Positions 34,919 to 53,560 of a stretch of 64,000 bases of DNA are shown here, piece by piece. This DNA is from an uncultured Oscillospiraceae bacterium. GTDB lineage: Bacteria; Bacillota; Clostridia; Christensenellales; Aristaeellaceae. Position numbers and translations under genes: made by a program. The notes under the pieces are model-generated. The model saw only the letters and a list, made by a program, of their open reading frames with translations, ran no database searches and was not told the origin of the DNA. The stretch is from the NCBI GenBank assembly GCA_964584315.1, contig CAZOZO010000001.1:84225-148224 (forward strand). The letters are read 5' to 3'. Numbering within the stretch: position 1 is the first letter of the stretch; the number at the start of each line of letters is the position of its first letter.

Positions 34919-34933
34919 TAAAGGGACGGTCAC

Positions 34934-36854: not shown

Positions 36855-36861
36855 GAGCTGA

Positions 36862-37737
36862 ATGCGTTTGATCAGCAAGGAACTGTTCAAGAAGCCCAAC
36901 AACCGGCTGGAGGGCGAACAGGAGCACCCCGTTGCCGCCGCCGCGCCGGAGGCCGACATCAGAATGGCTGAGTGCCAGGAGTGCAAGGCACAGGCAGTGG
37001 CCGCGCAGTTGCCCGCGATGGACTATGTGTGCCCGCGCTGCGGCGCGCAATATTCTATCAGCGCGCGCGAGCGTGTGCTTTGGCTGACGGATGAAGGCAG
37101 CTTTCAGGAACTGGACGCGGGCCTTGTGCCAATGGATCGCCTGCGCTTTCCCGCTTATGCGGAAAAACTCAAGCGTGCCCAGCAGGACAGCGGCGAGCCG
37201 GAGGGCGTGGTCACGGGTGTGGCGACCATCGGCGGCCAGCCCTGCGCGATTTTCTCGATGAACCCGATGTTCATCATGGGTTCGATGGGCGCGGTGGTGG
37301 GGGAGAAGATCACCCGCCTGTTCGAGTACGCAGCGGAGCAGGGCCTGCCTGTCGTGGGCTACACCGTGAGCGGTGGGGCGCGCATTCAGGAGGGCATGTT
37401 CAGCCTGATGCAGATGGCCAAGACCAGCGGCGCGGTGCTGCGGCACAGCGAAGCGGGGCTGCTCTATGTGGCGGTGCTCACCAACCCGACTACCGGCGGC
37501 GTGGTGGCTTCCTTCGCGATGGAGGCGGACGTGATCCTGGCCGAGCCCAAAGCCCTGATTGGCTTTGCAGGCCCGCGCGTGATCGAGCAGACCATGCGCC
37601 AGAAGTTGCCTGAGGGCTTCCAGCGCGCGGAGTTTTTGCTGAAAAAAGGCTTTATCGACCGCATCGTGGAGCGCGGCGCGCAAAAGCGTGAGCTCACGCT
37701 GCTGCTGCAAATGCACCATAGGGAGGGTTGCCTGTGA
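36862..37737 (+). CDS. accD: acetyl-CoA carboxylase carboxyltransferase beta subunit
   Basis: 291 aa, N-terminal C4 zinc ribbon (CQECKAQ...CPRCGAQ), CT domain. Confidence 0.9.
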   Translation: MRLISKELFKKPNNRLEGEQEHPVAAAAPEADIRMAECQECKAQAVAAQLPAMDYVCPRCGAQYSISARERVLWLTDEGSFQELDAGLVPMDRLRFPAYAEKLKRAQQDSGEPEGVVTGVATIGGQPCAIFSMNPMFIMGSMGAVVGEKITRLFEYAAEQGLPVVGYTVSGGARIQEGMFSLMQMAKTSGAVLRHSEAGLLYVAVLTNPTTGGVVASFAMEADVILAEPKALIGFAGPRVIEQTMRQKLPEGFQRAEFLLKKGFIDRIVERGAQKRELTLLLQMHHREGCL

Positions 37738-38519
37738 CCACGGCATACGAGCGGGTGCAGGCCGCCCGCCAGAAGGGCCGCCCCACGGCCATGTACTATA
37801 TCCAGCGAGTGTTTGACGATTTTTTGGAGATGCACGGCGACCGCCGGTTTGCGGACGACGCGGCCATCGTGGCGGGCGTGGCGACGCTGGGCGGCCTGCC
37901 GGTCACGGTGGTAGGGATTGAGAAGGGTGTTTTGACCGAGGAGAAGATCGCGCGCAACTTTGGCTCCGCACACCCTGAAGGCTACCGCAAGGCTTTGCGC
38001 CTGATGAAACAGGCGGAGAAGTTCGGCCGCCCTGTAGTGTGCCTGATCGACACCTCCGGCGCATTTTGCGGCATCGGCGCGGAGGAGCGCGGGCAGGGGC
38101 TCGCCATCGCAGAAAACCTGATGGCGATGATGGGGCTCAAGGTGCCGGTCGTCTCGCTGGTGATCGGCGAGGGCGGCAGCGGCGGCGCGCTGGCGCTGGG
38201 CGTGGCTGACCGGGTGTGGATGTTGGAGAACGCCGTGTACTCGGTCATATCGCCCGAAGGCGCGGCCAGCATCGTGTGGAAGGACGCAGCCAAGGCCGCC
38301 GATGCCAGCGAGGCGCTCAAGCTGACCGCTGCCGATCTGTTGGGCTTTGGCATGGTGGAGCGCGTGTTCCCCGAGGAGAACGGCGATTTTGAGCGCCTGT
38401 GCGACACGTTGCGCACGGCGCTGGCCGATGAACTGAAAGCGCTTTCAGCCTTGCCTGTGGGCGAGCTGACCGAGCGCCGGTACCAGAAATTCCGCAGGAT
38501 CGGAGGTGACGGGGCATGA
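37728..38519 (+). CDS. accA: acetyl-CoA carboxylase carboxyltransferase alpha subunit
   Basis: 263 aa, RPVVCLIDTSGAFCG, GEGGSGGALALG. Confidence 0.9.
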   Translation: MPVTTAYERVQAARQKGRPTAMYYIQRVFDDFLEMHGDRRFADDAAIVAGVATLGGLPVTVVGIEKGVLTEEKIARNFGSAHPEGYRKALRLMKQAEKFGRPVVCLIDTSGAFCGIGAEERGQGLAIAENLMAMMGLKVPVVSLVIGEGGSGGALALGVADRVWMLENAVYSVISPEGAASIVWKDAAKAADASEALKLTAADLLGFGMVERVFPEENGDFERLCDTLRTALADELKALSALPVGELTERRYQKFRRIGGDGA

Positions 38520-39412
38520 TCGCGATCATGGTGGACAGTGCAGCGGGCATCAGCAGGCAGGAAGCAGAGCAGCTGGGCGCGCATTACGTGCCCATGACCT
38601 ATACCGTGGATCGCCAGCAGTTCGTTGAGCACTACATCGGCGAAAACGGTCAGTTTGAGCCCTTTATCGAGCGACCGGACGTGGAGCGCCGCACCAGCCA
38701 GACGACCACGGTGGCCTTTGTGGCGGCTTTTGAGCACCAGCTGGCCAAGGGGCGGCAGGTGCTGTGTATCACCATCTCCTCGCGCCTGTCCGGCACCTAT
38801 GCAAACGCCGTGATGGCCGCCAAAGAGGTGAACGAGGACGAGATCAAGGTGCTGGACAGCCGCAACTGCGCGGGCGGCATCTACTTTTTGATCCAGCACG
38901 CACAGGAACTGATCGCCCAGGGGTTGAGCCTGTGCGAGGTGGTGGAGCGGCTGGCGGCGGATCGCAAACGCATCCACAACGTGTTTACCGTAAACGACAT
39001 GACCAACCTTCGCAAGAGCGGCAGGCTGGGCGTGGTGCGCCTGAGCGTGAGCACCATTTTGAACCTGCGGCCCATACTGCGGCTGGAAAACGGCTCCGTT
39101 TTCAGCCAGAGCGTGGCGCGCGGCAACCACGAGCAGCTGCGGATGCTGGCGGAGAGCGTACCGCTTGGCACGCGCTTCGTGGTGGTGCACAGCCGCGAGA
39201 ACAACCCGCAGCTGCCCGCGCTGCAGGAGATGTTGGTGAGCCGCCTTGGCGAAGGGCTGGAGCTGCGCATCGTTAGCCTGGGCCCGGTGCTGGCCATCCA
39301 CCTGGGGCTCACGTACCTTGGCGTGTGCTGGATGGACGAGCAGGCGGAATCCGACGCCCCCGCCGGCGCTGGTACGCCCTGCGGTGCGCCCGCCATGCCA
39401 GAGGAACCGTGA
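38516..39412 (+). CDS. DegV-family fatty-acid-binding protein (FakB-like)
   Basis: 298 aa, DegV/EDD fold (IAIMVDSAAGIS...TISSRLSGTYANA). ATGA overlap with accA, last gene of the fab/acc operon. Confidence 0.85.
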   Translation: MIAIMVDSAAGISRQEAEQLGAHYVPMTYTVDRQQFVEHYIGENGQFEPFIERPDVERRTSQTTTVAFVAAFEHQLAKGRQVLCITISSRLSGTYANAVMAAKEVNEDEIKVLDSRNCAGGIYFLIQHAQELIAQGLSLCEVVERLAADRKRIHNVFTVNDMTNLRKSGRLGVVRLSVSTILNLRPILRLENGSVFSQSVARGNHEQLRMLAESVPLGTRFVVVHSRENNPQLPALQEMLVSRLGEGLELRIVSLGPVLAIHLGLTYLGVCWMDEQAESDAPAGAGTPCGAPAMPEEP

Positions 39413-41374: not shown

Positions 41375-41431
41375 CCGCTTGGGGGTCGCAAAAGCCCTTG
41401 CGGAGCAAGAACCCGCTGCGCCAAGCTCAAA

Positions 41432-41469
41432 CCAGAGCGAGACCTGCCGATCGGCAGGCCCCGCTCTGG
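41432..41469. terminator. bidirectional hairpin between convergent M28 peptidase and hybrid kinase genes
   Basis: ccagagcg-agacctgccgatcggcaggcc-ccgctctgg: 8-bp outer stem with an inner 6-bp palindrome (cctgcc gatc ggcagg); weak T tracts on both sides. Confidence 0.5.
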
Positions 41470-41502
41470 TATGTGCATCATATTGGCCCGGGGCTTGGCA
41501 TT

Positions 41503-44500
41503 TCAGGGTTTTCGGTTTGCCAGCGCATCTATCTCCCGCATGGCTTGGCTCAAAAGCGACTGGAACCGCTCATGCTCCTCGTGCACAACATCTGTATCGC
41601 TTGCCTGCAACGCTTTTTGCAGCCTTTCGGCACACACGGCAAGTTGCATGGCCCCAATGCTGCCGGAGCTGCTCTTGACCTTGTGCACGGTCTGCGCAGC
41701 CTGGACAAAATCATTCGCGTCGATCTGCGCTTGCAACTGCTCTCCTGTCTGTCGGTTCTCGCTCAGGTACGCCTGCAATATCGCCACGTAAAGGCTCTCG
41801 TCGATGCCAAGCTGCCGCATCGCCCGTGCGCTGTCCACCACGGGCGCATTGTCCTGCGACGCAGCCAGCGGAGCGTCCGCCGGGCCGGCCGTTTCAGCGG
41901 CTTCCATTTTTCCGGAAGGCCTGTCCACAGCCGCTGCCGGCGGCGGCTCGACCGCTGCTGCGGGGGTCGGGTTGCTCTCGCGACAGGGCTTCCCTTTCAG
42001 CGCCTCCAGAATGGTGCGGATGAAGGCCTCGGGTTCAAACGGCTTGCTCACGTAATAGTCGATACCGTGGCTCTTGCACTTCTCCTCCACGCCCACCACC
42101 GCGTCCGCAGTCATCGCGATGATGGGGATGCTTTGATCTGTTTGGCGGATCAGGTCGGTCGCCGTGTATCCGTCCATCACCGGCATATGGATGTCCATGA
42201 GGATCAGGTCGATCGACTCGCGGTGGGCGCTGAAAAAATCATAGCCCTCCTGTCCGTTGCCCGCCATGGAGATGACAAAGCCCGCCGAGGATAAAATGCT
42301 CTGCGCGATAAACTGATTGGTCTTGTTGTCCTCAACCAGCAGGATGTGGTAGGGGCAGGGCGCCACAGGGGCTTCCTCCACAGCCTCGGCATTTCCTTTT
42401 CGGGGCGGGTCGATGCGGAACAGTTCCACGATGCCGTTATACAGCGTGGAGGGAACGATGGGCTTGGTGAAGCCGAAATCGATGCCGCAGGCGGCGATAT
42501 TCTCCAGCAGATCCTCGCGCGTCATGGGCACCATGAGCATACACTTGGCGCTGCGCGGGAAGTACATGGCTTTGCGGATCCGCTCCAGAAAGGCGATACC
42601 GCCGTCCTGCGGGGTCAGGTAATCCACGATCAACAAATTGTATGGCGCATCGCTCTCGAGCGCCGCTTTGCGCATGATCTGCACAGCCTGTGCCTCGTCT
42701 GCGGTAACACGGTGCTCGATGCCGAACGCTTTCAGATAATCGCCCAGCGTGTTGCGGGAGTTTTCGCTGGCGTCCAGCACCAAGGCGCGTACCGTGCGGA
42801 AGCAATCCGCCGCCATTTTTTGCGAATCAAACGGCATCTGGTTGGGGTCGGCTTCCAGCGATAGCCGCACCGTGAAGACGGAGCCCTTGCCAAGCTCGCT
42901 CTGCACATCGATCTGGCCGCCCATCAGCTCCGTCAGGCTCTTGACAATCGACAGGCCAAGCCCTGTGCCGCCAAACCGGCGGCTGATGCTCGAATCGCCC
43001 TGGTCGAAGGGCACGAACAGCCGCTTGGTCTGCTCCTCACCCATACCGATGCCCGTATCCTGCACGCTGAACGTGACGACGTATTTGAGATCGCTCCGGC
43101 TTTGCGAGTTTATCGTGAGCGTGACGCTGCCGCGCTCGGTAAACTTGACCGCATTGTTCACAAGGTTGAGCAGCACCTGCTCAATGCGCGTGGGATCGCC
43201 CATGAAGAGCGTTGGCATGTCAGGCGCTTTGCGGATGAAAAACTCGATCTCCTTCTCCTCCACTTTAACGGAGATGATGTTGGTGATGCGTTGCAACAGC
43301 TTGTCCAGATCGAAGGAGATCCTTTCGATCTCGATCTTGCCCGATTCGATCTTGGAAAAATCAAGGATGTCGTTGATGATGCTGAGCATGTTGCGCGCGG
43401 ATTGATTCAGCTTTTCCAGATAGTTGCCCTGCGTGGCGGTCAGCCCCGTTTTTTTGATCAGGTAGGCCATGCCCATGATGGCGCTCAGCGGCGTGCGTAT
43501 CTCGTGGGACATGCGCGCTAAAAACAGCGATTTGACCTGATTGGCCTGTTCCGCCTCGGTTTTGGCCGCGCTGGCTTCCTCCTGCGCCTTTTTTCGGCGC
43601 GCGACCTCCTTACGCAAGCGCAGTATCCAGTAAAGCGACACCGTCCACACCAGCGCAACAAGCCCGCCGACGATCAACAGCGTCTGGATCAGCGCGGAGT
43701 AGTCCGTATCTGCCTGAATGGATATCCATTTGTTGCTGATGGCGATGCGTTCTTCCTGCTTTATACTGCCCAGCGCCTTGTTAAGGATGCCCACCAGCAC
43801 CGGCCAATCGCTACGCACAGCGAAGTACAGCTGCTGCGGCTGCTGCGAGCTGATGGTGATATAGCGCAGGTTGGTGATGCCATACTTTTTGATCAGGTAG
43901 CTGGAGGTGCTCAGGTTGCCCACAAAGGCGATCTCGGTGCCGTCCGATACGGCCTGCAGCGCCTCCTCCACGGTGGTGTACAGGGCCAGCGATATGGTTG
44001 GGTAGTCCATTAGGAAGCTGTGGTGCGAGCTATTCACCTGCACGGCCACGCGCCTGCCCTTAAGATCGTCGAATGATTTGATCTGCCTGGTGTTTTCATT
44101 GATGAAAATGACCCGCTGGAAGGTGTAATACCCTTGTGAGAACAGGAAGTACTTCTCCCGCTCTGCCGTTTTGGCCACGCAGGGCAGCACATCCAGCTGC
44201 CTGCCTACGGCCTTCTCGTATGCCTGCGTCCAGGTCAGCCCTTTTGCCACTGTCATTTGGAGGCCTGTCGCCTTGGCGATCAGCGCGATATAATCCGCCG
44301 CGATACCCTTGTAGATACCGTCGGTGTCGAAGAACTCATACGGGATGAACGCAGGGTCGACACCCAGACGGATCTCCGGGTGCGCGGCCATGAAGTCCAG
44401 TTCCTCCTGCGACCAGACGATGCCGCCGGATGCCCTCGCTGCGGGCGCTGTGCCAAGGGAGAGGCACAGCAGGCACAGAAGGAGCAGCAGAAAGCGTGCG

Positions 44501-44532
44501 CATTCCGTTCCTTTCGTCCTCATGATCATCAC
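41503..44532 (-). CDS. hybrid sensor histidine kinase: signal peptide, two tandem periplasmic SBP_bac_3-like ligand-binding domains, TM, HisKA/HATPase_c, two REC domains, C-terminal Hpt
   Basis: 1009 aa. HisKA H-box (MSHEIRTPLSAIMGM), HATPase G-boxes (DTGIGM, GGTGLGLSIV), REC Asp (LIVDY..., LMDIHMPVMDG), Hpt helix bundle at the C-terminus (HKVKSSSGSIGA). Confidence 0.85.
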   Translation of the reverse strand: MMIMRTKGTECARFLLLLLCLLCLSLGTAPAARASGGIVWSQEELDFMAAHPEIRLGVDPAFIPYEFFDTDGIYKGIAADYIALIAKATGLQMTVAKGLTWTQAYEKAVGRQLDVLPCVAKTAEREKYFLFSQGYYTFQRVIFINENTRQIKSFDDLKGRRVAVQVNSSHHSFLMDYPTISLALYTTVEEALQAVSDGTEIAFVGNLSTSSYLIKKYGITNLRYITISSQQPQQLYFAVRSDWPVLVGILNKALGSIKQEERIAISNKWISIQADTDYSALIQTLLIVGGLVALVWTVSLYWILRLRKEVARRKKAQEEASAAKTEAEQANQVKSLFLARMSHEIRTPLSAIMGMAYLIKKTGLTATQGNYLEKLNQSARNMLSIINDILDFSKIESGKIEIERISFDLDKLLQRITNIISVKVEEKEIEFFIRKAPDMPTLFMGDPTRIEQVLLNLVNNAVKFTERGSVTLTINSQSRSDLKYVVTFSVQDTGIGMGEEQTKRLFVPFDQGDSSISRRFGGTGLGLSIVKSLTELMGGQIDVQSELGKGSVFTVRLSLEADPNQMPFDSQKMAADCFRTVRALVLDASENSRNTLGDYLKAFGIEHRVTADEAQAVQIMRKAALESDAPYNLLIVDYLTPQDGGIAFLERIRKAMYFPRSAKCMLMVPMTREDLLENIAACGIDFGFTKPIVPSTLYNGIVELFRIDPPRKGNAEAVEEAPVAPCPYHILLVEDNKTNQFIAQSILSSAGFVISMAGNGQEGYDFFSAHRESIDLILMDIHMPVMDGYTATDLIRQTDQSIPIIAMTADAVVGVEEKCKSHGIDYYVSKPFEPEAFIRTILEALKGKPCRESNPTPAAAVEPPPAAAVDRPSGKMEAAETAGPADAPLAASQDNAPVVDSARAMRQLGIDESLYVAILQAYLSENRQTGEQLQAQIDANDFVQAAQTVHKVKSSSGSIGAMQLAVCAERLQKALQASDTDVVHEEHERFQSLLSQAMREIDALANRKP

Positions 44533-44534
44533 CC

Positions 44535-45605
44535 CTATGCCAGCGGCATAAAGCGTTCGGCAATGGCCCTGATCTCCGCCTCGATCTGGAAGAACGCATC
44601 CACCAGCTCCGGGTCGAAGTGCTTGCCGCGCTCGCCGCCAATGATGTCAAGCGCCGTCTCGTGGCTGAAGGCGGGTTTGTATACGCGCTGGCTGACCAGC
44701 GCATCGTACACGTCGATGATGGCCATCAGCCTGCCTGCCAGCGGGATCGCCTTGCCCACGAGCCTGGCAGGGTAGCCGCTGCCGTCGAATTTCTCATGAT
44801 GCGTGCCCACGATCTCCAGCGCCGTGCAGATGAAGGAGAGCTGCGTGCCCTCGTGCCCAGCCAGCCGCAGGGCCTCTACGCCGTAGGTGGTGTGTTTTTT
44901 CATGATCTCGAACTCTTCCGGCGTCAGCTTGCCCGGCTTGAGCAGGATATGATCCGGGATGCCAACCTTGCCGATATCGTGCAGCGGCGCGGTGCTGAAA
45001 AGCTCGCTGATGTAGGCGTCGGTCAGCATGGTGCTGTAGGGTTCCATGCCGCGCAGGTGCTCGCACATGGCCTTCATCATCCACTGGGTGCGGCGGGTGT
45101 GGTTGCTGGATTCGATATCCCGCACCTCCAGCAGCCCCACCAAAGCCTGTATGGTCACGTCACGGGTCAGGTTCAGCTCGCGCGTGCGCTCCTGCACAGC
45201 GTTTTCCAGGATCACGTTGTGCTGCTCCAGCGCCTTCTGCGTTCTCTTGAGGCTGCTGTGCAGCTCGATGCGCTTGAGCAGGGAGCGCAGGTTCAGCGGT
45301 TTGCGGATGTAATCCACTGCGCCCAGCTCAAGACCCTTGATCTCGTTGTCGATCTCGTCATAATTGGTCAGGATCAGGGTGGCGATGCCGTGGTAGCGCG
45401 GGTCGTCGCGGATGGCGGCCAACACCTCAAAGCCGTTCATGCGCGGCATGTTGATATCCAGAATCATGATATCGATGTCATTTTCGCGCGCAAGCACCTC
45501 CATCGCCTCCACCCCGTCGGCGGCGGTGCGCAGGTCGTAATCCTTGAGCATGTTGCGCAGCATCATCGAATCCGTCATGGAATCGTCGACGATCAACAGT
45601 TTCAT
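44535..45605 (-). CDS. response regulator with HD-GYP c-di-GMP phosphodiesterase output domain (RpfG-like)
   Basis: 356 aa, REC (LIVDDS...ILDINMP) plus HD-GYP (HDIGK ... HHEKFDGSGYP). 3-nt spacing to the kinase gene. Confidence 0.85.
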   Translation of the reverse strand: MKLLIVDDSMTDSMMLRNMLKDYDLRTAADGVEAMEVLARENDIDIMILDINMPRMNGFEVLAAIRDDPRYHGIATLILTNYDEIDNEIKGLELGAVDYIRKPLNLRSLLKRIELHSSLKRTQKALEQHNVILENAVQERTRELNLTRDVTIQALVGLLEVRDIESSNHTRRTQWMMKAMCEHLRGMEPYSTMLTDAYISELFSTAPLHDIGKVGIPDHILLKPGKLTPEEFEIMKKHTTYGVEALRLAGHEGTQLSFICTALEIVGTHHEKFDGSGYPARLVGKAIPLAGRLMAIIDVYDALVSQRVYKPAFSHETALDIIGGERGKHFDPELVDAFFQIEAEIRAIAERFMPLA

Positions 45606-45644
45606 CCAATGTCACCCTGCCTTCATCATCTGGTTTACGGTGCG

Positions 45645-46967
45645 TCAATCGTTGTGCAGGATACGGTTTCCCTCCGTTTCAATCATCGCCAGAAAGGCTT
45701 CCGTGGTCAGTTCGCCGGTCATCACCCGGTGCAGCCCGGGGGCGTAGTAATCGTCCTTGACCACCTGCCACGCGGGCACGGGCACATCCACGCTGGGGTT
45801 CTGGAAGCCCTCGATGAACTTGATATAGGATGGATAGGCGCGGAATGCATCAACGGCGGACATATCGCCGCGGATGGGCGTTCGGAAGGGATAGTAGGCA
45901 TCGTGTTCCGGGCTGTATTCGCCAAGTAAAATCTGTCCCTGCGCCTTGGGGGAGATCAGGTAGCGGATTAGGTCGAGTGCCTGCGCACGCAAGGACTCGT
46001 CCAAACCCGCGGGCACGGCCAGCATCATGGGACCTACCTCCGCGCAAAGGCCGATATCCTTGAGCGAGATGACCCCCACCTCAAAGGGCTCCCCGTTTTT
46101 CTGGATGTCCGTGACACCCCAAATGCCCTGGATCTCAAAGGCGACCTGCTGGTTGCGGAAGTGATCCATCACCTCCACGCCGGTATCCGTAAGCCAGGTC
46201 GGCTGTGCGTGCGCGCCCAGAACGTTCTTGTAGAAATCGATCGCTGAACGGCTTGCCTCGCTGTTGATGGTAACAGTGGCGCCGTCTTTGCTCACCAGCG
46301 AGCCGCCAAAGCCGTAGATGCACTGGTTCACCATCCACGAGATGTCGTTGCCCTCCGCGCCGACCAGTCCGAAACCCTTGGCGCCTGTGTTGGCTTCCAC
46401 CTGTGCCATGGCGCGCACCAGCGCATCACGGCTTTTGATGGACGAGGCATCGACGCCCGCCTGTGAAAGCAGCGACTCGTTGTACAGCAGGCACATCGCG
46501 TGCCCCAGCCACGGGATGCCGTAGGTCGCGCTGCCCACGCCCCCCAGCGCCCACACCTGCGGATAAAAGGCCGCACGCTCCGCCTCGAATGCCGCGTCAA
46601 GATCCAGCAGCGCACCCTTCATGCCAAAGTACTTTACATACCGATAAGGAAGAACGCAGACGAGCGGTGCGCCGCTGTCCAGCAGCGCCTCGATGGCGTG
46701 CAGATCCTCATCGCCGCCCACCATGGTGACGGGGGCGACGCTACCCGCGTTGTAGGCATCCACGATCTTCTGGATGGCTTCGCCCCGGCCGGTGTAAGCC
46801 GCCCATGTAATGCGCAGCGATAGCCCTGCAGGGACGGCCTGCGCCGCGTCGGCACGCGGGGTGGATGCTGTTGTTTGGGCTGGCAGCTCAGGCTTTTGCG
46901 CACAGCCAAACAGGCTGAAAACCAACACGGCGGCCATCAGCAGAAGCCAGATTCTTTTCCCAATCAT
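45645..46967 (-). CDS. family-1 extracellular solute-binding lipoprotein (ABC-type SBP fold) encoded inside the signalling operon
   Basis: 440 aa, lipobox LFGC, SBP_bac_1-like sequence; no adjacent ABC permease/ATPase genes. Confidence 0.75.
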   Translation of the reverse strand: MIGKRIWLLLMAAVLVFSLFGCAQKPELPAQTTASTPRADAAQAVPAGLSLRITWAAYTGRGEAIQKIVDAYNAGSVAPVTMVGGDEDLHAIEALLDSGAPLVCVLPYRYVKYFGMKGALLDLDAAFEAERAAFYPQVWALGGVGSATYGIPWLGHAMCLLYNESLLSQAGVDASSIKSRDALVRAMAQVEANTGAKGFGLVGAEGNDISWMVNQCIYGFGGSLVSKDGATVTINSEASRSAIDFYKNVLGAHAQPTWLTDTGVEVMDHFRNQQVAFEIQGIWGVTDIQKNGEPFEVGVISLKDIGLCAEVGPMMLAVPAGLDESLRAQALDLIRYLISPKAQGQILLGEYSPEHDAYYPFRTPIRGDMSAVDAFRAYPSYIKFIEGFQNPSVDVPVPAWQVVKDDYYAPGLHRVMTGELTTEAFLAMIETEGNRILHND

Positions 46968-47297
46968 CCCTAAACCTCCAACGGTGAGCTTTCACGGTCG
47001 GTCGGGTGAGAAACTTTATTCATAATTGCTTTTAAGTACGTGATCTTTAGCCTTATCATACAACAAATACGCGAGAATGGCAATCAATTCCTGATGCCGC
47101 ATGAGGCGGCACCCCTTTATGAGGCTGATTTTGCACTTGTGCGAGAAAGGGTGCGCGTGCGAGACTGGCGCTTTGGATGGCGCGCACCGCAAAAAAACGC
47201 AGGCATTGCCGGGTTGCATCGGCAAAGCCTGCGAATGATCCAGTGAAAAGGGATGACCGGAGAGCTGGCGGATGCCGGAAAACCAACCGCACAGGGC

Positions 47298-48647
47298 TCA
47301 GGCCGATACGACCCGGTTGCGCCCCATGTTTTTGGCGCTGTACATCGCGTCGTCTGCCGTATTGATAAGCTGCTGGATGTCGTTGATATCTTTATTCGGG
47401 TACGTCGCGGTACCCAAGCTGACGGTCACTTTCACTTCCTGGTCGTTCCATTTCAAAATCGAGTCGCCCACCATGATGCGGATTCGCTCCGCAATCATCT
47501 GCGAATCGTGCTGGTTGGCTCCGGGCAGCACGCACAGGAATTCCTCTCCGCCATAGCGTATCAGCACATCGCCTTCCCGAATCGCGCCGTTGATGGTTTT
47601 GGTGATGGATACGATGATCTTGTCGCCGACGATGTGCCCGTAGGTATCGTTGACCACCTTGAAGTGGTCGATATCCAGCATGATGAGCGATAAAGAAGCG
47701 CCGGAACGGATCGAACGGCTGAACTCCTCCTGGATGCGGCTGTATCCAAACCTGCGGTTATAGATGCCCGTGAGCGAATCCAGCGCAGCCAGCCGCTGCA
47801 TCTGCTGGTGTGTGATGGCGTTGTTGAAGGCCATGGACAGGATCGGGGCACAGGCGGTGAGCATGTCGAGCGCGTCGCAGGAGAACGGCGTGATGCTCGC
47901 CAGAATGATGACCCCCAGCAGCACCTGCTTGTAGATGATGGGTTCAATGATCAACGACTGCGGGCGGTAATCCACCACCAAGCCGTCCATCACGATATCA
48001 GTGGGGTACTGCACGATGTAGCGTTCATGGGTTTTCATGGTATGCAGCACAAGCGCGTTGGTCTCCAGCAGTTTTTCGTTTTTCATGGCAAGCGTGGCCA
48101 CGGCTGTAAACTCGCCGCTGTTTTCGATCAGGATCGCCCCGCCGCTGGTGTGCGTATTCTCGATCAGGCTTTGCAGCGTGCTGTTTGCGAGCACCTCCAG
48201 CTCCAGATGCGAAGTGAGCATCTCGGAAAACTGCTGCAGGCTGCTCTGCGCCTTCAATACGCCAGACAGCGTCGTGATCAGGCGGTTGAACGATTCCGCG
48301 CTTTCGCCCAGCTCATCCTCCGAATCCACCTCGATGCGGCAGGTTTCAGGCGTGCACGTGTCACAGCCTTGCTCATGCCCCATGGCGGAGAGGATGCCCT
48401 CCACGTGCTTCATTTTGGAAGACAGCTGCTTGATGCGCGTGCCTACGGTCTTGCGCGCCAGCGCGATGTTCATGACGGCCAGCAGGATGCCCGCCCCGAT
48501 GCACGCGCCAAAGAACGCGGGCTGGAATACGATGCTGCCGGGGACCTTGAACAGTGCAACAAAAAACGGAAAAAGCACGCCAACAAAAACGCCGAGCAGG
48601 ATCATGAATATGGCCAGATCGGTAAAAATTTTCTTGGTAAGCCGCAT
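47298..48647 (-). CDS. membrane-anchored GAF-GGDEF diguanylate cyclase
   Basis: 449 aa, two N-terminal TM helices, HAMP-like linker, GAF-like region, GGDEF domain with intact GGEEF active site and RxxD-type I-site context. Confidence 0.85.
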   Translation of the reverse strand: MRLTKKIFTDLAIFMILLGVFVGVLFPFFVALFKVPGSIVFQPAFFGACIGAGILLAVMNIALARKTVGTRIKQLSSKMKHVEGILSAMGHEQGCDTCTPETCRIEVDSEDELGESAESFNRLITTLSGVLKAQSSLQQFSEMLTSHLELEVLANSTLQSLIENTHTSGGAILIENSGEFTAVATLAMKNEKLLETNALVLHTMKTHERYIVQYPTDIVMDGLVVDYRPQSLIIEPIIYKQVLLGVIILASITPFSCDALDMLTACAPILSMAFNNAITHQQMQRLAALDSLTGIYNRRFGYSRIQEEFSRSIRSGASLSLIMLDIDHFKVVNDTYGHIVGDKIIVSITKTINGAIREGDVLIRYGGEEFLCVLPGANQHDSQMIAERIRIMVGDSILKWNDQEVKVTVSLGTATYPNKDINDIQQLINTADDAMYSAKNMGRNRVVSA

Positions 48648-48809
48648 ATCTGTACCCCTTATTTTCTTTCGGCGCCGGCAATGGGTGGCTTTCCGTACCT
48701 GTCGCCGGATGCATAATAGCTATCATTTTAGACATATTCACCACTCTGTCAATAGACAAGACATGAGGTTTGTGGCTCAAAGTGCAGGCCGGCGCGCGAC
48801 CGATGCCTA

Positions 48810-48838
48810 TTTACAGAAGTCAACTCCCTTTATATAAT
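48810..48838 (+). promoter_or_regulatory. sigma70 promoter of the exopolysaccharide operon (TTTACA-17-TATAAT), divergent from the DGC operon
   Basis: TTTACA 48810-48815, TATAAT 48833-48838; ~60 nt to the GTG start with AGGAGG RBS. Confidence 0.6.
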
Positions 48839-48902
48839 GAAACGGAGGGGGATATGGCCCCGCGTGTGATCGTTGCCCAAATGTTTTTACAGGAGGCACC
48901 CT

Positions 48903-51900
48903 GTGCGCAAAGTCATAGGCGGTTTTCTTGCCATCATACTGCTGCTGGCGGGCATGCTTTGGGTCACCAAGGCATATTTCTTCTCCATCGGCTATTCGCA
49001 GCCGCTGGTCGTCAGCAGCCAGGGCGTGTCCTACACCGCCAAGGTGGAGGGCAAGGATTTTTATGTGCTGGACGCGGGCGGGCAGTGGAAAAAAACATTC
49101 CTCGCCGGTGTGGATATCGGCCTTGGCGCACCTGGATCGTTCCCGGGCGAGTTTGCCATCGGGTATGAGACCTATTTCGACTGGTTCACGCAGATCGGCG
49201 ATCTGGGCTCGAACGTCATCCGCGTGTACACGCCGCAGTCGCCTGCTTTCTACCACGCACTGTACGAGTATAACCGCGTTGCGGCCACTCCGCTGTATTT
49301 GATGCAGGGCGTGTATATGGATGAGAGCGACGTGGCGCAGTACGGCGACGTGTTCGACCCCCGCTCCATCACCATTGCGGATATGCGGCAGGATATCGTG
49401 GACTGCGTGAACATGCTGCACGGCAACGCAGTGATCGGCGCCAAGCCGGGAAAGGCTTCGGGCGTATATCAGTATGACGTCTCCAAGTATGTGATCGGCT
49501 GGATACTGGGCATCGAGTGCGAGGCGTATCTGGTGGATGGCACCAACAAGGCGCACCCCGAGATGACCAGCTTTCAGGGGCGCTTCGTCTATACCGAGAA
49601 TGCCTCGCCCTTTGAGGTCTTCATCGCGCAGATGAAGGAGCTGGCCATTGCCTACGAGACCGATCAATACCGGATGCAGCGGCCCGTGGCGTTCAGCAAC
49701 TGGGTTACTACCGACCCCCTGAAGCACGTAAACGAGCCCTACGAGACGGAGGACAGCGCCACCATTGATGTGGAGCATATCAAGTCGATGCCTGCCTTTG
49801 CGCCGGGCTTCTTTGCCTCCTACCACGTGTACCCCTACTATCCCGATTTTCTCAACTTCCCCAGCGGCGACCCGGCGGTGGACGCGGATCCGTATTACGC
49901 CTATGTGCGCTCGCTGGTGGATTTCCATGCTGTGCCCGTGCTCATCTCCGAGTTTGGCCTGCCCACCTCCCGTGGGGTAACGCACATCAACCATCTGAGC
50001 GGCCTCAACCAGGGCGGCAACAGCGAGCAGCAGCAGGCGCAGGGGCTTACGAAGATGCTGGACGACATCCACCGTGCCGGTTGCATCGGCGGCATCGTGT
50101 TTGCCTGGCATGACGAGTGGTTCAAAACCTCGTGGAACACCATGGACTTTGATGACAGCTCCGCTCGCCCCAAATGGCTCAATGTACAGTCCAGCGAGGA
50201 GAACTTTGGCCTTGTGCGCTTCTCCGCCTTCCCGTCCATCCAGATCGACGGCGACGATGCGGACTGGGCTGGTGCCAAGGCTGTGGGCGATAGCGACGCC
50301 TTGAAAGCGAACTGGGATGAGGCCTACCTCTACCTGCGGCTTGCCACGGACGATTTTGAAAACCAGACCTACTATGTGCCCATCGACACCATCGCAGACG
50401 AGGGCAACGAAGGCTATGAGGGCGCATCTTTTGCCCGCGCGGCCGATTTTGTGCTGGTGCTGGATGGCAGGCAGGACACGCGCCTGCTGGTCGACCCGTA
50501 CTATAACCCAAACTATAGACTCTACGGACGGGATACCTTCCCCAAAGAGGCGCTTGCGGACTTCACGGTCAAGGGCAGCGGTAAGTTCATCATGGTGCAG
50601 CAGGTCATCAGCAACCGGCTCCTCATGCCCAAGACCGGCCAAATCGTGCCCGTTCAGCTGTGGGATACCGGCAAAATGCGCTACGGCGTCTCCAACCCTG
50701 AGAGCCCCGCCTTTGATTCCATGGCCGATTTTTGCGCGGGGGATGGGTTCGTGGAGATACGCATCCCGTGGCTGTTGCTGAATTTCGCGGATCCGTCCTC
50801 CGGCAAGATTCTGACCGACCTGCACAAGGAGGGGCCGTTCAGCTTTGAGCGCATCCAGAGCATTTACCTGGGCGTGGGCGAGGCTGACGAATCAGCGGCC
50901 GTCTCCATGGCGCCCTACACGCTGCCCGCATGGGGTGCATTCCCCTACCAGCAGCGGCTGAAGCTGGCTTACTACGCGCTGGAGAAGGTTTTCCCGAAAT
51001 ACGCCACCTACCCGATCAGCGCGGGCGACCCGCTGGCGGAGGCGCTGCGCCTGCGCGACACGCGCCTTTTGTACGTGCGCATCGACCGTCAGATCCGCAA
51101 CACAGATCTGATCACGTTCTTCCTGGCCGTGTCGCTGCTGATGGCGCTGTACCTCTATATCCTGCTGCTGGCTATCAACCTGAACCTGAACCGCATCTTC
51201 AGGCGTCAGGAACGCGAGCGTGTCTACCTGCTGTCGTTGCTTGCATTGCCGGAAAAGAAGCTGCGCCGCAAGCTGCACATGCATTACCTGTGCACGGCCA
51301 GAGGTGCGGAGCTGCTGTGCCGCATCCTGACGGACGAATGCCCGTGGGGAAGCGATACGGCGCTTATCGAGGTGCTGCGCACAGGGCGTTACTTCGCCTG
51401 GATGAAACGTAGCCTTGCCTCGCGGGACATGATGCTGCGTATCCTGATCATCCGCCTGACGGGCCTTTTGCGCATCCGCAGTTTTGAAACGCAGATCATC
51501 CCTCTGATGCGGGCGCAGCGCGATAACCTGAACCTGCAATACGCGGGTTTTCTGGCGCTGTCGATGATGGGCAACCGCGACAGCATCGTCAAGCTCTGCG
51601 GCGACCCGGCCTTTACCAAGTCGCTCTCCTACCGCAGCCTGAAGGAGATCTTCAGCGTGTACACGGGAGACAAGCGATTTTTGTACGAGAAGCTGCTGCT
51701 CTCGCCGGATGTGTACATCCGCCGCATCGTGATCAAAAACATCGGCGAGGAAGGCTTCCGCGAATATGCCCAGGCGCTGATCCCCATGCTGGAGAGCCGG
51801 GACGACAACATGCTGTGCGACGTGATCCGCGCGCTGGGGCAGCTGCGCTGCACCGCCGCCGGAGAGCGGATCGCGATGTACATGCGCAGCGAGAACTGGA

Positions 51901-52151
51901 CGCTGCGCAACGCGGTGGTGGTGGCCCTGGCCGCCATCGATGCGGAGGCCTACCGCCCCCTGCTGATGGAGGGTCTCAAAGACAAAGAGTGGTGGGTGCG
52001 CTACAACAGCGCGCGGGAGCTGTGTGCCAACGTACCGCTGGAATCGCTGGCAGCAGCCATCCCCACGCTGAACGACCGGTTCGCGGCCGAGATACTGCGC
52101 TTCGCCATCGATGAGGCGCGCATGATGGGCAAGGGGGTGGCTAGGGTATGA
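48903..52151 (+). CDS. two-pass membrane protein: extracellular clan GH-A-like (TIM-barrel) glycoside-hydrolase fold + beta-sandwich region, second TM, cytoplasmic HEAT/PBS-lyase-type repeat domain
   Basis: Start GTG 48903 (RBS AGGAGG, 6-nt spacer); the track's TTG 48873 lacks an RBS. N-terminal TM (VIGGFLAIILLLAGMLWV); candidate acid/base NEP (HVNEPYE) and nucleophile ExG (LISEFGLP) ~80 aa apart; second TM (LITFFLAVSLLMALYLYILLLAI); C-terminal ~300 aa of HEAT-like repeats (VIRALGQL...AVVVALAAID...WWVRYNSAREL). 4-nt overlap with the GT2 gene. Confidence 0.7.
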   Translation: MRKVIGGFLAIILLLAGMLWVTKAYFFSIGYSQPLVVSSQGVSYTAKVEGKDFYVLDAGGQWKKTFLAGVDIGLGAPGSFPGEFAIGYETYFDWFTQIGDLGSNVIRVYTPQSPAFYHALYEYNRVAATPLYLMQGVYMDESDVAQYGDVFDPRSITIADMRQDIVDCVNMLHGNAVIGAKPGKASGVYQYDVSKYVIGWILGIECEAYLVDGTNKAHPEMTSFQGRFVYTENASPFEVFIAQMKELAIAYETDQYRMQRPVAFSNWVTTDPLKHVNEPYETEDSATIDVEHIKSMPAFAPGFFASYHVYPYYPDFLNFPSGDPAVDADPYYAYVRSLVDFHAVPVLISEFGLPTSRGVTHINHLSGLNQGGNSEQQQAQGLTKMLDDIHRAGCIGGIVFAWHDEWFKTSWNTMDFDDSSARPKWLNVQSSEENFGLVRFSAFPSIQIDGDDADWAGAKAVGDSDALKANWDEAYLYLRLATDDFENQTYYVPIDTIADEGNEGYEGASFARAADFVLVLDGRQDTRLLVDPYYNPNYRLYGRDTFPKEALADFTVKGSGKFIMVQQVISNRLLMPKTGQIVPVQLWDTGKMRYGVSNPESPAFDSMADFCAGDGFVEIRIPWLLLNFADPSSGKILTDLHKEGPFSFERIQSIYLGVGEADESAAVSMAPYTLPAWGAFPYQQRLKLAYYALEKVFPKYATYPISAGDPLAEALRLRDTRLLYVRIDRQIRNTDLITFFLAVSLLMALYLYILLLAINLNLNRIFRRQERERVYLLSLLALPEKKLRRKLHMHYLCTARGAELLCRILTDECPWGSDTALIEVLRTGRYFAWMKRSLASRDMMLRILIIRLTGLLRIRSFETQIIPLMRAQRDNLNLQYAGFLALSMMGNRDSIVKLCGDPAFTKSLSYRSLKEIFSVYTGDKRFLYEKLLLSPDVYIRRIVIKNIGEEGFREYAQALIPMLESRDDNMLCDVIRALGQLRCTAAGERIAMYMRSENWTLRNAVVVALAAIDAEAYRPLLMEGLKDKEWWVRYNSARELCANVPLESLAAAIPTLNDRFAAEILRFAIDEARMMGKGVARV

Positions 52152-53560
52152 GGAACGTGATCTACGCGGTGTTGATGGTCATCAACAGCCTTTCGCTGGC
52201 GTACATGATCGGCATCACGATCACGTACTTCCTGCAGCTGCTCTACTCCGGCAAGGCCCTCAACGAATATGTCAAGTACCTGCGCTTTTCGGATTACCGC
52301 CGCTACATCGATTCGGCCAACATGATCCCCGTTTCGCTGATCGTGCCCGCCTACAACGAGGAAGCGACGGTGACCGAAACGGTCAAAAACCTGCTCAAGC
52401 TCAACTACCCGGAGTATGAGATCATCGTGGTGAACGACGGCTCCAAGGACGGCACGCTGCCGCTGTTGATCGAGAAATTCAGCATGGTGCCCATCGAGCA
52501 GCCGTTCAAAAAATCGGTGGAAGCCAAACCCATCCGCGCGGTGTACCGCACGCCGCTGCATGCCAACCTGATGGTCGTGGACAAGGAAAACGGCGGCAAG
52601 GCGGACGCGCTGAACGCGGGCATCAACTTTTCCCGCTACCCGGTGGTGGTGTCGATGGATGCGGACTCGGTACTGGAGAAAGAAGCGCTGGTGCGCATCG
52701 TGTCGCCCTTTTTGCAGGACAACACGGTGGTTGCGGTGGGGGGCGTGGTGCGCATCGCCAACGGCTGCGTGATCGAAGATGGCGAGATCAAGGAGATTCG
52801 CCTGCCGCGCACAGCGCTGGGCAAACTGCAAACGGTGGAGTACTTGCGCTCGTTTTTCACGGGGCGCATCGGGGCCGCGTCCATGGGCATGCTGCTGATC
52901 ATCTCCGGCGCATTCGGCGCCTTCCGCAAGGATGCGGTCATCTCGGTGGGCGGCTACACCACGCACTGCATCGGCGAGGATATGGAGCTGGTGGTCAAGC
53001 TGCACCGCGGCCTGCGCAATGCGGGCAAGCCGTACAAGATCGACTTTCTGCCGGACCCCATCTGCTGGACGCAGCCGCCCGAAAACCTGCGCGACCTGTA
53101 CAAGCAGCGCAAGCGCTGGCAGATCGGCCTAATCAACGTGCTGATGCGCCACAAAGACATGGCTTTCAACGCCAAGTACGGCAAAGCCGGGCTTTTGATG
53201 CTGCCCTATTATTGGATCTTCGAGTTTATCGGCCCCATCTTTGAAACGATGGGTTATTTCGTGATACCGCTGTCGTGGTGGCTGGGTATCATCAGCTGGA
53301 AATTCACATTGCTGTTCTTCCTGCTGGTGGTGATGGTAGGGCTGATCCTGTCGCTGGGCGCGATATTGCAAGAGAGTTATGCCATGCGCAAGTTCCCCAA
53401 AATGAGCCAGATACTGACGCTGGCCGCCTACGCGCTGGTAGACAACTTCGGCTTTCGGCAGTTCAACACCGTGATCCGTTTCATCGGCTGCATCAAATAC
53501 CGCAGCGGTAAGAGTACGTGGGGCTCCATGAAGCGTGAAAAGTTCGTATCCAAAAAATGA
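52148..53560 (+). CDS. processive family-2 glycosyltransferase (PgaC/IcaA/NodC/chitin-synthase-like beta-glycan synthase)
   Basis: 470 aa, N- and C-terminal TM bundles, GT-A core with VNDGSKDGT, DADSVL, and the processivity motif QRKRWQIG (QxxRW). No PilZ domain. Confidence 0.82.
   Translation: MRNVIYAVLMVINSLSLAYMIGITITYFLQLLYSGKALNEYVKYLRFSDYRRYIDSANMIPVSLIVPAYNEEATVTETVKNLLKLNYPEYEIIVVNDGSKDGTLPLLIEKFSMVPIEQPFKKSVEAKPIRAVYRTPLHANLMVVDKENGGKADALNAGINFSRYPVVVSMDADSVLEKEALVRIVSPFLQDNTVVAVGGVVRIANGCVIEDGEIKEIRLPRTALGKLQTVEYLRSFFTGRIGAASMGMLLIISGAFGAFRKDAVISVGGYTTHCIGEDMELVVKLHRGLRNAGKPYKIDFLPDPICWTQPPENLRDLYKQRKRWQIGLINVLMRHKDMAFNAKYGKAGLLMLPYYWIFEFIGPIFETMGYFVIPLSWWLGIISWKFTLLFFLLVVMVGLILSLGAILQESYAMRKFPKMSQILTLAAYALVDNFGFRQFNTVIRFIGCIKYRSGKSTWGSMKREKFVSKK

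Follow-up and report, generated by a model that had tools for sequence, protein, structure and literature searches.

A solute-binding lipoprotein linked to a hybrid kinase and a REC-HD-GYP regulator: a predicted c-di-GMP phosphorelay module of Clostridia and Negativicutes

Introduction

In the RpfC/RpfG system the hybrid kinase, which has REC and Hpt domains, phosphorylates a REC-HD-GYP protein and thereby activates its c-di-GMP phosphodiesterase (PMC8463545). RocS1, an unorthodox kinase whose ectodomain is of the SBP_bac_3 type, signals to RocR, a regulator that combines a receiver with a phosphodiesterase (10.1101/2024.10.18.618891), and the two systems are precedents for kinase-to-phosphodiesterase relays. 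Some HD-GYP proteins hydrolyse cGAMP or work through protein contacts (10.1101/2021.11.05.467447). Solute-binding proteins (SBPs) which act as co-sensors include LuxP, TorT, XylFII, HptA, NspS and ScrB, the genes of which are linked to signalling and not to transporter genes; NspS-MbaA and ScrB-ScrC regulate polysaccharide production as well as the turnover of c-di-GMP (PMC8050422).

The locus described here lies in a 64,000-nucleotide stretch of DNA (the window) and contains a three-gene module that occurs in many anaerobic Firmicutes. Its parts are familiar, and their combination has apparently not been studied in the literature so far.

Organisation of the locus

A first-pass annotation had placed four minus-strand genes in this region, and all four open reading frames were found at exactly its coordinates, together with the following signals and divergent genes:

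41431-41470, minus strand: terminator-like hairpin with an 18-bp stem and UUU, 33 nt past the kinase stop codon (sequence and fold)
41503-44532, minus strand: hybrid (unorthodox-type) histidine kinase, 1009 aa (Pfam domains, motifs, orthologue alignment)
44535-45605, minus strand: RpfG-family response regulator REC-HD-GYP, 356 aa, predicted c-di-GMP phosphodiesterase (Pfam, motifs, conservation)
45645-46967, minus strand: orphan family-1 (CUT1-fold) solute-binding lipoprotein, 440 aa, which opens the three-gene module (Pfam, lipobox)
47055-47083, minus strand: promoter-like TTGCCA-17-TATGAT about 90 nt 5' of the SBP start codon (consensus match only)
47191-47233, minus strand: intrinsic-terminator-like hairpin (7+6 bp stem) and U7, 65 nt past the cyclase stop codon (sequence and fold)
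47298-48647, minus strand: membrane-anchored HAMP-like/GAF/GGDEF diguanylate cyclase, 449 aa (Pfam, motifs, locus comparison)
48725-48752, minus strand: promoter-like TTGACA-16-TAAAAT 5' of the cyclase gene (consensus match)
48810-48838, plus strand: promoter-like TTTACA-17-TATAAT for the divergent polysaccharide genes (consensus match)
48873-54847, plus strand: putative exopolysaccharide gene set, divergent from the signalling locus
First gene of this set, plus strand: membrane protein of 1082-1092 aa that ends in HEAT repeats and probably starts at GTG 48903, behind an AGGAGG
52148-53560, plus strand: PgaC/IcaA-like GT2 (profile match under the cut-off)
53693-54847, plus strand: GH18, part of the putative exopolysaccharide set

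The intergenic gaps are 2 bp between the regulator and kinase genes, 39 bp between the SBP and regulator genes and 330 bp between the cyclase and SBP genes. The SBP gene has a GGAGG ribosome-binding site 8 nt 5' of its ATG. The true start of the kinase is probably ATG 44529 or 44523; the regulator stop codon lies 2-11 nt ahead of the kinase start, and translational coupling of the pair seems likely. Promoter and terminator assignments throughout the window are consensus or fold predictions. The hairpin behind the kinase gene folds at -48.2 kcal/mol (z -5.7), which was equalled by none of 200 shuffles, and is possibly bidirectional because an M28 peptidase gene converges on it. The hairpin at 47233-47191 has a 13-bp stem in all, folds at -31.4 kcal/mol (z -2.6 against shuffles) and was overlooked by a simple terminator scan because of an internal mismatch in the stem.

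Conservation of the three-gene module

Comparison of 160 related loci identified the SBP, the phosphodiesterase regulator and the kinase as the conserved unit, which is tightly spaced and present in Clostridia and Negativicutes. In all 80 genome loci that were found via the SBP, the SBP gene is followed on its own strand by the genes for the phosphodiesterase regulator and the kinase, with median gaps of 24 nt (SBP to regulator) and 8 nt (regulator to kinase). A reverse search with the flytrap domain of the kinase led to 103 loci in the SBP-linked clades, of which 98 still have the SBP. Kinase-regulator pairs lacking the SBP make up a sister clade (26 loci, EAL regulator) and five scattered loci, and the core motifs of the flytrap are conserved equally with and without the SBP. 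The SBP would therefore be an accessory third component, which is dispensable in principle, and the kinase could sense alone. One nested clade has a REC-PAS-GGDEF*-EAL protein in the place of the HD-GYP regulator, with a receiver of 54-64% identity; the substitution of one phosphodiesterase type by another suggests that the selected output is always c-di-GMP hydrolysis, as predicted from the domains.

The hybrid kinase and its regulator

The kinase is composed of a signal peptide/TM segment, an SBP_bac_3 domain (residues ~40-275), a second TM segment (~283-303), HisKA, HATPase_c, REC1, REC2 and Hpt, and Pfam thus confirmed the 1009-aa hybrid kinase that had been annotated. The first-pass annotation was mistaken in giving it two tandem SBP_bac_3 domains, as a single Venus-flytrap domain lies between the signal peptide/TM and the TM: Pfam reports one SBP_bac_3 stretch (residues 54-270), and BvgS VFT2 and chain 7ejg_C (237 aa) each give a single, one-to-one alignment with the 245-aa ectodomain. 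The ectodomain is closest to BvgS VFT2 (E 1e-38) and EvgS (E 7e-27). A domain search gave no match to PAS in the kinase, and the BvgS/EvgS-type layout of two tandem VFT domains and a PAS was rejected for this protein with its one flytrap. The SHEIRTP (H342), NAVKF, DTGIGM and GGTGLG motifs and the Hpt motif HKVKSS (H950) are intact, and the protein has the H-box His, N and G boxes, receiver Asp and Hpt His of an H1-D1-H2 kinase. Its phosphotransfer residues H342 (HisKA), D780 (REC2) and H950 (Hpt) are invariant in 68 orthologues. Two REC matches and an Hpt domain were found as annotated, but only REC2 is canonical (E734, D735, D780 and K830 all present), while REC1 (~580-700) is atypical and has neither the acidic DD pair nor the T/S position. 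The score against the BarA model is 428 bits, which is under the equivalog cut-off of 890.

The regulator has a complete receiver (D7, D8, D50 and K102; Response_reg E 2e-23), and across 66 orthologues these residues are conserved to 98% or more. Its HD-GYP domain (HD_5 E 6e-31) contains all the motifs as defined, with their roles, in 10.1101/2021.11.05.467447, namely E..D..NH..R, PLHDIGK, KPG, KH, HHEKFDGSGYP, D..D and RVYK, and across the same 66 orthologues the conservation of these motifs, metal ligands included, is also 98% or more. The annotation of a REC-HD-GYP phosphodiesterase is borne out by the presence of HD, HHE, GYP, KPG and RxYK, which is the motif set of the RpfG family, and no active-site residue is missing from either the HD-GYP domain or the GGEEF of the cyclase. 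The closest solved relatives are PA4781 (E 9e-42) and PmGH (E 1e-36), with which the metal- and substrate-binding residues align. Given the invariant H342, D780 and H950 and an adjacent regulator with a receiver conserved to at least 98%, the Hpt-to-REC relay suggested at first pass would be the natural reading of this gene pair.

The solute-binding lipoprotein

The third component is an SBP_bac_1/SBP_bac_8 protein (SBP_bac_1 E 1e-21) with the lipobox LFGC. Its AF2 model (pLDDT 83) matches CUT1 sugar SBPs with TM scores of 0.67-0.76, which places it in the family-1 SBP fold, and the best matches are maltose, cello-oligosaccharide and UgpB binding proteins, at 16-21% identity to the nearest structures. 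No CUT1-type ABC permease was found among the window ORFs scanned with Pfam, and no ABC permease among the nearest neighbours of the module (70 upstream and 68 downstream ORFs), so the description of an orphan lipoprotein without an ABC partner holds. A CUT1 importer has two permease genes, usually with an ATPase gene alongside; the SBP gene is linked to signalling and not to transporter genes in the window, in 80 genome loci and in 25 metagenome loci. Its position as the first module gene in those 98 of 103 clade loci, never beside an ABC permease, fits the earlier idea of a co-sensor. The distance matrix of the SBP tracks the module (r 0.64-0.79), and its top partial correlation, with the flytrap domain, is 0.33, which is weak evidence. 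Contact between the SBP and the kinase is something that we infer.

The cyclase and the divergent polysaccharide genes

Two TM helices at the N-terminus of the cyclase are followed by a GAF match, which is weak (E 3e-5), and by a GGDEF domain (E 4e-46; 174 bits against TIGR00254, cut-off 37). Its active site RYGGEEF is intact with an RxxD I-site (REGD) five residues upstream, in agreement with the annotated TM-GAF-GGDEF cyclase apart from the weakness of the GAF match. Domain and TM analysis found neither a REC nor an extracytoplasmic domain in this protein, so no link from it to the relay can be recognised, and the claim that synthesis and degradation depend on one phosphorelay is not supported. 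No orthologue occupies the same position in relatives. In the closest genome locus (SBP 75% identical; L002) the EPS operon directly abuts the SBP gene. The cyclase appears from these comparisons to be a lineage-specific neighbour outside the conserved module and not a relay component.

The EPS operon reported to lie head-to-head with the signalling genes was recovered as the divergent set of HEAT-repeat membrane protein, PgaC-like GT2 and GH18, but an EPS link is seen in only 9 of the 80 genome loci. The GT2 scores 174 bits against the NCBIfam equivalog TIGR03937 (cut-off 422), and on this profile it is best regarded as a related processive GT2 without assignment to the PgaC/IcaA poly-beta-1,6-GlcNAc synthases.

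The proposed relay and its alternatives

It is proposed that 46967-41503 is a three-gene operon encoding a three-component phosphorelay through which extracytoplasmic cues would govern how fast c-di-GMP is hydrolysed, a reading to which we assign a probability of about 0.65. The Venus-flytrap (SBP_bac_3) domain of the kinase itself would be the sensor outside the membrane, and the membrane-tethered family-1 SBP with its CUT1 oligosaccharide-type fold is most likely a second, ligand-loaded co-sensor which modulates the kinase. Phosphate would pass from H342 to D780 (REC2), then to H950 (Hpt) and finally to D50 of the HD-GYP regulator. The cyclase would be an independent source of c-di-GMP with its own predicted promoter and terminator and a cytoplasmic sensor. 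What the sequence itself shows is the order and domain content of the genes, their conserved synteny and the intactness of the catalytic and phosphotransfer residues; whether the cue switches the kinase on or off, what the SBP binds and whether the adjacent polysaccharide genes are affected we can only infer.

The SBP could instead be an ordinary or dual-use transport receptor that supplies an oligosaccharide to a CUT1 ABC importer encoded elsewhere, its gene being merely located in, or regulated by, a two-component locus while the kinase senses through its own flytrap only. We consider this unlikely. The CUT1 transport fold and the matches to sugar-binding proteins would suit such a receptor, as would the 31 loci in which same-family kinase-regulator pairs with unchanged flytrap motifs run without an SBP, and dual transport/signalling SBPs exist, e.g. 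GltB-GtrS and CBP-ChiS (PMC8050422). However, permease genes never adjoin the SBP in the 80 or more loci examined, the gene is always the first of the operon and has been kept in 95% of the loci from Clostridia and Negativicutes, its mean column identity of 64% is unusually high conservation for a CUT1 SBP, and signalling-linked SBP genes are signalling-only in a review table (PMC8050422). It is highly improbable that the regulator acts on something other than c-di-GMP, by hydrolysing 3'3'-cGAMP or chiefly through protein-protein contacts. Although the cGAMP-specific HD-GYP phosphodiesterase 5z7c is its third-best solved relative, and cGAMP hydrolysis and regulatory interactions are noted for some HD-GYP members, the conserved RxYK and KPG are linked to c-di-GMP specificity (10.1101/2021.11.05.467447), the best solved relative, PA4781, is a c-di-GMP phosphodiesterase, sister loci use an EAL regulator in place of the HD-GYP protein, and GGDEF genes are over-represented next to the module.

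This enrichment, together with the adjacency of four genes on the same strand, also bears on the original proposal of a self-contained make-and-break operon in which one SBP-fed phosphorelay governs both synthesis (GAF-GGDEF) and degradation (HD-GYP) of c-di-GMP. GGDEF is the family most often encoded directly beside the module (11 of 70 ORFs upstream and 7 of 68 downstream), the active sites of the two enzymes appear intact, and RpfG-family HD-GYP proteins are reported to contact GGDEF proteins in references given by PMC8463545. We nevertheless regard this arrangement as improbable, as the cyclase, which has neither REC nor ectodomain, is separated from the SBP gene by the 330-bp gap that contains the hairpin with U7 and then the promoter-like site. 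Its N-terminal part has no homologue in the 80 related loci, the GGDEF genes upstream in other loci are unrelated (they match it in the GGDEF domain alone, at 26-40% identity), and the closest relatives have no cyclase at all in this position. The four genes are thus probably not a single operon, and read-through from the cyclase into the SBP gene may occur.

Comparison with known systems

The three-gene phosphorelay module would be an uncharacterised variant of the RpfC/RpfG-like and RocS1/RocR-like phosphorelays to which an SBP co-sensor has been added. As in RpfC/RpfG of Xanthomonas and Lysobacter, the regulator carries every RpfG-family motif. Unlike RpfC, whose multi-TM input domain detects a fatty-acid signal, the kinase has a Venus-flytrap ectodomain and a separate SBP, as well as an extra, atypical REC1, and the host belongs to the Bacillota. 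PA4781, a REC-HD-GYP protein of P. aeruginosa, and PmGH of Persephonella marina have the closest solved HD-GYP domains with aligned binding residues; to our knowledge both occur in other genomic contexts with no linked SBP or flytrap kinase.

Like RocS1/RocR of Pseudomonas aeruginosa and VieS/VieA of Vibrio cholerae, the module pairs an unorthodox kinase having an SBP_bac_3 ectodomain with a receiver-phosphodiesterase; in its type B and C relatives this regulator is a REC-...-EAL protein, as in RocR and VieA. The kinase described here has one flytrap and no PAS, against two SBP_bac_3 domains plus a PAS in RocS1, and its output is HD-GYP. The Roc system is without a separate SBP gene, and we know of none in the Vie system (VieS/VieA). 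With BvgS and EvgS the kinase shares the H1-D1-H2 layout and an ectodomain nearest to BvgS VFT2, but it differs from them in its single flytrap, lack of PAS and extra REC1, and its partner is an enzyme and not a transcription factor.

Like LuxP-LuxQ, TorT-TorS, XylFII-LytS, HptA-HptS, NspS-MbaA and ScrB-ScrC, the module has an SBP gene which accompanies signalling genes and not transporter genes. The sensors of those systems have dCache-, 4HB/TarH- or HBM-like ligand-binding domains, whereas the sensor in the window is itself of SBP fold and its contact with the SBP is proposed from the genes. In NspS-MbaA and ScrB-ScrC the SBP works directly on a GGDEF-EAL protein, whereas the SBP described here would act through a phosphorelay.

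Gene content and predicted transcription units

The first-pass annotation called four minus-strand genes, and open reading frames are present at exactly the positions it assigned, their coding frames supported by high third-position GC (0.76-0.85). Known families supply each part, namely an RpfG-family regulator, an H1-D1-H2 kinase with a BvgS-like Venus-flytrap (VFT) domain, here termed the flytrap, a CUT1-fold solute-binding protein (SBP) and a GGDEF cyclase.

Genes and intergenic elements (window positions)
48810-48838, plus strand: predicted promoter-like site for the divergent polysaccharide genes
48752-48725, minus strand: predicted promoter-like site of the cyclase gene itself
47298-48647, minus strand: cyclase, 449 aa; two N-terminal TM helices, HAMP-like linker, GAF, GGDEF
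47233-47191, minus strand: terminator-like hairpin, 7+6-bp stem and U7 (fold -31.4 kcal/mol, z -2.6), within the cyclase-SBP gap
47083-47055, minus strand: predicted promoter-like site TTGCCA-17-TATGAT, within the cyclase-SBP gap
45645-46967, minus strand: SBP lipoprotein, 440 aa; SBP_bac_1/SBP_bac_8, lipobox LFGC
44535-45605, minus strand: response regulator, 356 aa; REC-HD-GYP
41503-44532, minus strand: hybrid kinase, 1009 aa; SBP_bac_3, HisKA, HATPase_c, two Response_reg matches, Hpt
3' of the kinase gene: second strong hairpin (z -5.7)

Only 2-11 nt lie between the stop codon of the regulator gene and the start of the kinase gene, and 39 nt separate the SBP and regulator genes. All four genes had been assigned to one operon; however, the gap between cyclase and SBP genes measures 330 nt, and the hairpin-U7 and promoter-like site predicted within it point to two transcription units, one consisting of the cyclase alone and the other of SBP, regulator and kinase. 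The cyclase site lies back-to-back with that of the polysaccharide genes. An Rfam scan of the whole window at the gathering threshold found no riboswitch, for c-di-GMP or any other ligand, and no family of any kind, and a permissive scan of 46900-49000 also returned nothing.

A conserved three-gene module

The SBP family comprises more than 500 clusters, the best 120 being 57-81% identical, with a mean column identity of 64% over 22 diverse members, and it is large and unusually well conserved. An SBP-based scan with one genome per species yielded 80 loci, the nearest relatives being Candidatus Limiplasma MAGs. The hosts are Christensenellales/Limiplasma, Oscillospiraceae, Syntrophomonas, Pelotomaculum, Dehalobacter, Fusibacter, Erysipelotrichaceae and the Negativicutes Sporomusa and Pelosinus. 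Every SBP-found locus with enough sequence carries, downstream and on the same strand, a kinase with all domains and a receiver-phosphodiesterase gene, with median intergenic gaps of 24 nt and 8 nt. In a reverse scan, metagenome contigs were searched with the kinase flytrap domain.

Layouts of the module, counted over both scans
Layout A: SBP, HD-GYP regulator, kinase; 86 loci
Layout B: SBP, kinase, EAL regulator; 12 loci
Layout C: kinase, EAL regulator, without SBP; 26 loci
Layout D: HD-GYP regulator, kinase, without SBP; 5 loci

In a neighbour-joining tree of the flytrap domain, layout C forms one separate clade, in which the upstream genes are unrelated, and layout B forms one clade nested in A. 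The layout D loci are scattered inside A, which suggests that their lack of the SBP is a secondary loss; the SBP is kept in 98 of the 103 loci of the A, B and D clades. The variant order SBP-kinase-regulator occurs in about ten genome loci (those of the nested clade bear the handles L025, L031, L043, L046, L053, L054, L056, L063 and L075), where the regulator has the architecture REC-PAS-PAS-GGDEF(degenerate)-EAL. Its receiver is 54-64% identical to that of the window regulator, and the replacement of HD-GYP by EAL is a clean swap of phosphodiesterase type behind a homologous receiver. One Negativicutes MAG locus (L071) has an extra REC-HisKA-HATPase gene at 11116-12366 (plus strand) between its SBP and HD-GYP regulator genes. 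As a family, the three-gene module is sharply delimited and widely distributed, and some of its hosts can be cultured, for example Sporomusa ovata, S. silvacetica and Fusibacter.

The regulator and the kinase

REC-HD-GYP proteins constitute the RpfG family, and HD-GYP enzymes are reported as the predominant c-di-GMP hydrolases in clostridia (10.1101/2021.11.05.467447). The best solved relatives of the regulator are PA4781 (E 9e-42) and PmGH (E 1e-36). Residues D7, D8, D50 and K102, the HD-GYP metal ligands and the GYP, KPG and RxYK motifs are at least 98% conserved in 66 orthologues, and RxY[K/R] and KPG have been linked to c-di-GMP recognition (10.1101/2021.11.05.467447). Essential residues missing from the HD-GYP or GGDEF domain would have spoken against the first-pass annotation; the HD-GYP metal ligands and motifs and the GGEEF are all present.

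The kinase ectodomain, 245 residues between the signal peptide/TM segment and a TM helix at about 283-303, had been described as two tandem SBP_bac_3 domains. It is instead a single VFT domain, for which Pfam gives one stretch (54-270) and which aligns once, end to end, with VFT2 of BvgS (E 1e-38), with EvgS (E 7e-27) and with its best match, the 237-aa chain 7ejg_C (E 2e-39). The depositor's name for PDB 7ejg is 'EAL domain-containing protein', and a full-text literature search gave no paper describing this structure. A PAS domain was not found in the kinase. The flytrap core motifs (DPxFxPxEF, DGxYKGIAADY, TxERE, NSSHHSYL, GNLAT and YFAVRxDWPEL) are equally conserved in loci with and without the SBP, and the kinase would be able to sense through this domain on its own.

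Both predicted receivers and the Hpt domain were recovered, although the first receiver (REC1, residues ~580-700) is atypical. Across 68 orthologues it keeps D637 and K690, its acidic pair is replaced by D/E then K/A and a conserved proline occupies the T/S position. H-box H342, E734, D735 and D780 of the second receiver (REC2) and Hpt H950 are invariant in the same set. REC1 is also the fastest-evolving part of the module, with a mean p-distance of 0.62 versus ~0.4 for the others. A phmmer search of the PDB, with E values allowed up to 10, gave nothing beyond generic CheY/Sln1 receivers and no ShkA-like hit, and lends no support to a possible role of REC1 as a ShkA-like c-di-GMP-binding pseudo-receiver.

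The solute-binding protein

The description of the SBP as an orphan holds, in that no importer permease is present among the window ORFs scanned with Pfam. Possible partners within the window were discounted: at 30-32 kb, the two candidate ORFs of 300 aa encode FabK and FabD rather than permeases, the region 21-26 kb encodes ABC exporters, and the ABC gene at 59-60 kb encodes an ATPase that stands alone. ABC permease families are likewise absent among the nearest neighbours of the module (70 upstream, 68 downstream).

The AlphaFold model of the SBP (pLDDT 83, pTM 0.80) superimposes on CUT1 oligosaccharide-binding proteins with TM scores of 0.67-0.76 but identities of only 16-21%. Its matches are the cyclic maltosyl-maltose binding protein, GacH, MalE, the cello-oligosaccharide binder CbpB, UgpB and a Thermus dinucleotide binder, and the ligand class predicted from the model is probably a glycan. 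At 16-21% identity the matches, which range across binders of maltose, cello-oligosaccharide, trehalose, glycerophosphodiester and dinucleotide, are too distant for a choice of one ligand. The SBP distance matrix correlates with those of every module part (r 0.64-0.79), the highest partial correlation being with the flytrap domain (0.33), which lends weak support to possible SBP-flytrap co-adaptation.

The cyclase and the polysaccharide genes

As annotated at first, the cyclase has an intact active site (RYGGEEF). Five residues upstream of it there is also an RxxD I-site (REGD). Its GGDEF match is strong (E 4e-46) and its GAF match weak (E 3e-5), and it has no ectodomain because the loop joining its two TM helices is only about 8 residues long. 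It is predicted to supply c-di-GMP independently, in response to a GAF-type input in the cytoplasm. Its N-terminal half is without a match in other module loci, and its GGDEF domain shares only 26-40% identity with the GGDEF genes that precede the SBP gene at a few of them. GGDEF is the commonest family among the genes nearest to the module, at 11 of 70 upstream and 7 of 68 downstream; HD-GYP and EAL come next. The cyclase is outside the conserved unit, which has three genes, not four. Of the first-pass headline, a self-contained operon that makes and breaks c-di-GMP under one relay, only part is supported.

The divergent, putative polysaccharide set (48873-54847, plus strand) begins with a gene for a 1082-1092-aa membrane protein with C-terminal cytoplasmic HEAT repeats; next come genes for a GT2 of PgaC/IcaA-like type, which scores below the equivalog cut-off, and for a GH18. 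The extracytoplasmic part of the HEAT-repeat protein contains a glycosidase-like region (...VRVYTPQ..., ...ISEFGLP...) with no Pfam or PDB sequence match. A divergent HEAT-protein/GT2 operon lies beside the module in 9 of the 80 genome loci, all Christensenellales-like, and in the closest of all genome loci (L002, Limiplasma, SBP 75% identical) the HEAT-protein gene directly adjoins the SBP gene. Cyclase and polysaccharide genes are lineage-specific neighbours of the module.

Other features of the window

A complete fatty-acid synthesis/acetyl-CoA carboxylase cluster (28649-39412, plus strand; MarR-type regulator, FabH, FabK-like, FabD, FabG, FabF, AccC, AccD and AccA, then DegV) represents the usual housekeeping surroundings in a genome of Clostridia type. 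The stretch 21438-26973, a possible export locus for a peptide or bacteriocin, has two minus-strand ABC exporter genes, of which one encodes a C39 peptidase domain, beside two small high-GC3 ORFs (plus strand, 26191-26544 and 26632-26973). An 878-aa protein (55049-57685, minus strand) has SPFH/Band_7 (residues 480-687) as its sole Pfam match, and a 768-aa protein (61322-63628, plus strand) combines four PG_binding_1 repeats with a NAGPA (phosphodiester glycosidase) domain.

Proposed mechanism and comparison with known systems

It is proposed that the three-gene operon constitutes a phosphorelay with c-di-GMP hydrolysis as its selected output, for which this locus uses HD-GYP and sister loci use EAL. 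The kinase would sense through its own flytrap domain, and phosphate would pass from H342 to D780, H950 and finally D50 of the regulator. The lipoprotein SBP is most likely a second input acting on the kinase ectodomain, an inferred contact for which there are precedents in SBPs whose genes are linked to signalling rather than transporter genes, namely LuxP, TorT, XylFII, HptA, NspS and ScrB (PMC8050422). A further-reaching reading, to which we give a chance of roughly one in four, is that the SBP docks on the flytrap domain to form a coincidence detector for two ligands, which would set the level of c-di-GMP hydrolysis, and that in Christensenellales/Limiplasma the SBP ligand could be an oligosaccharide released by the cell's own matrix. 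Were docking to occur, one SBP-fold protein would be sensing via another SBP-fold domain in a detector operating in hundreds of anaerobic Bacillota species. With such a ligand, matrix state and c-di-GMP would be joined in a closed feedback loop in Christensenellales/Limiplasma, where the module stands back-to-back with the GT2/GH18 operon.

As far as we are aware, almost nothing is known of the signals that feed into c-di-GMP networks of Clostridia and other anaerobic Firmicutes. The module offers two soluble extracytoplasmic binding domains for ligand screening together with a clean enzymatic read-out. Literature searches found no characterised member of this module family, and we could not find described a separate family-1 SBP and a kinase with its own SBP-fold sensor that act on a c-di-GMP phosphodiesterase regulator, conserved in Bacillota. 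ScrB-ScrC is not a direct structural precedent, since ScrB is an SBP_bac_3 protein and the ligand-binding domain of ScrC is dCache-like, a different arrangement (PMC8050422). All sensors in the same review of SBP signalling have dCache-, 4HB- or HBM-like ligand-binding domains (PMC8050422). The pairing required by docking is absent from this current catalogue of SBP-dependent sensors, and an SBP acting through the flytrap domain would represent a new structural mode of SBP-mediated signalling. The proposed route of phosphate from kinase to regulator resembles those of RpfC/RpfG (PMC8463545) and RocS1/RocR (10.1101/2024.10.18.618891).
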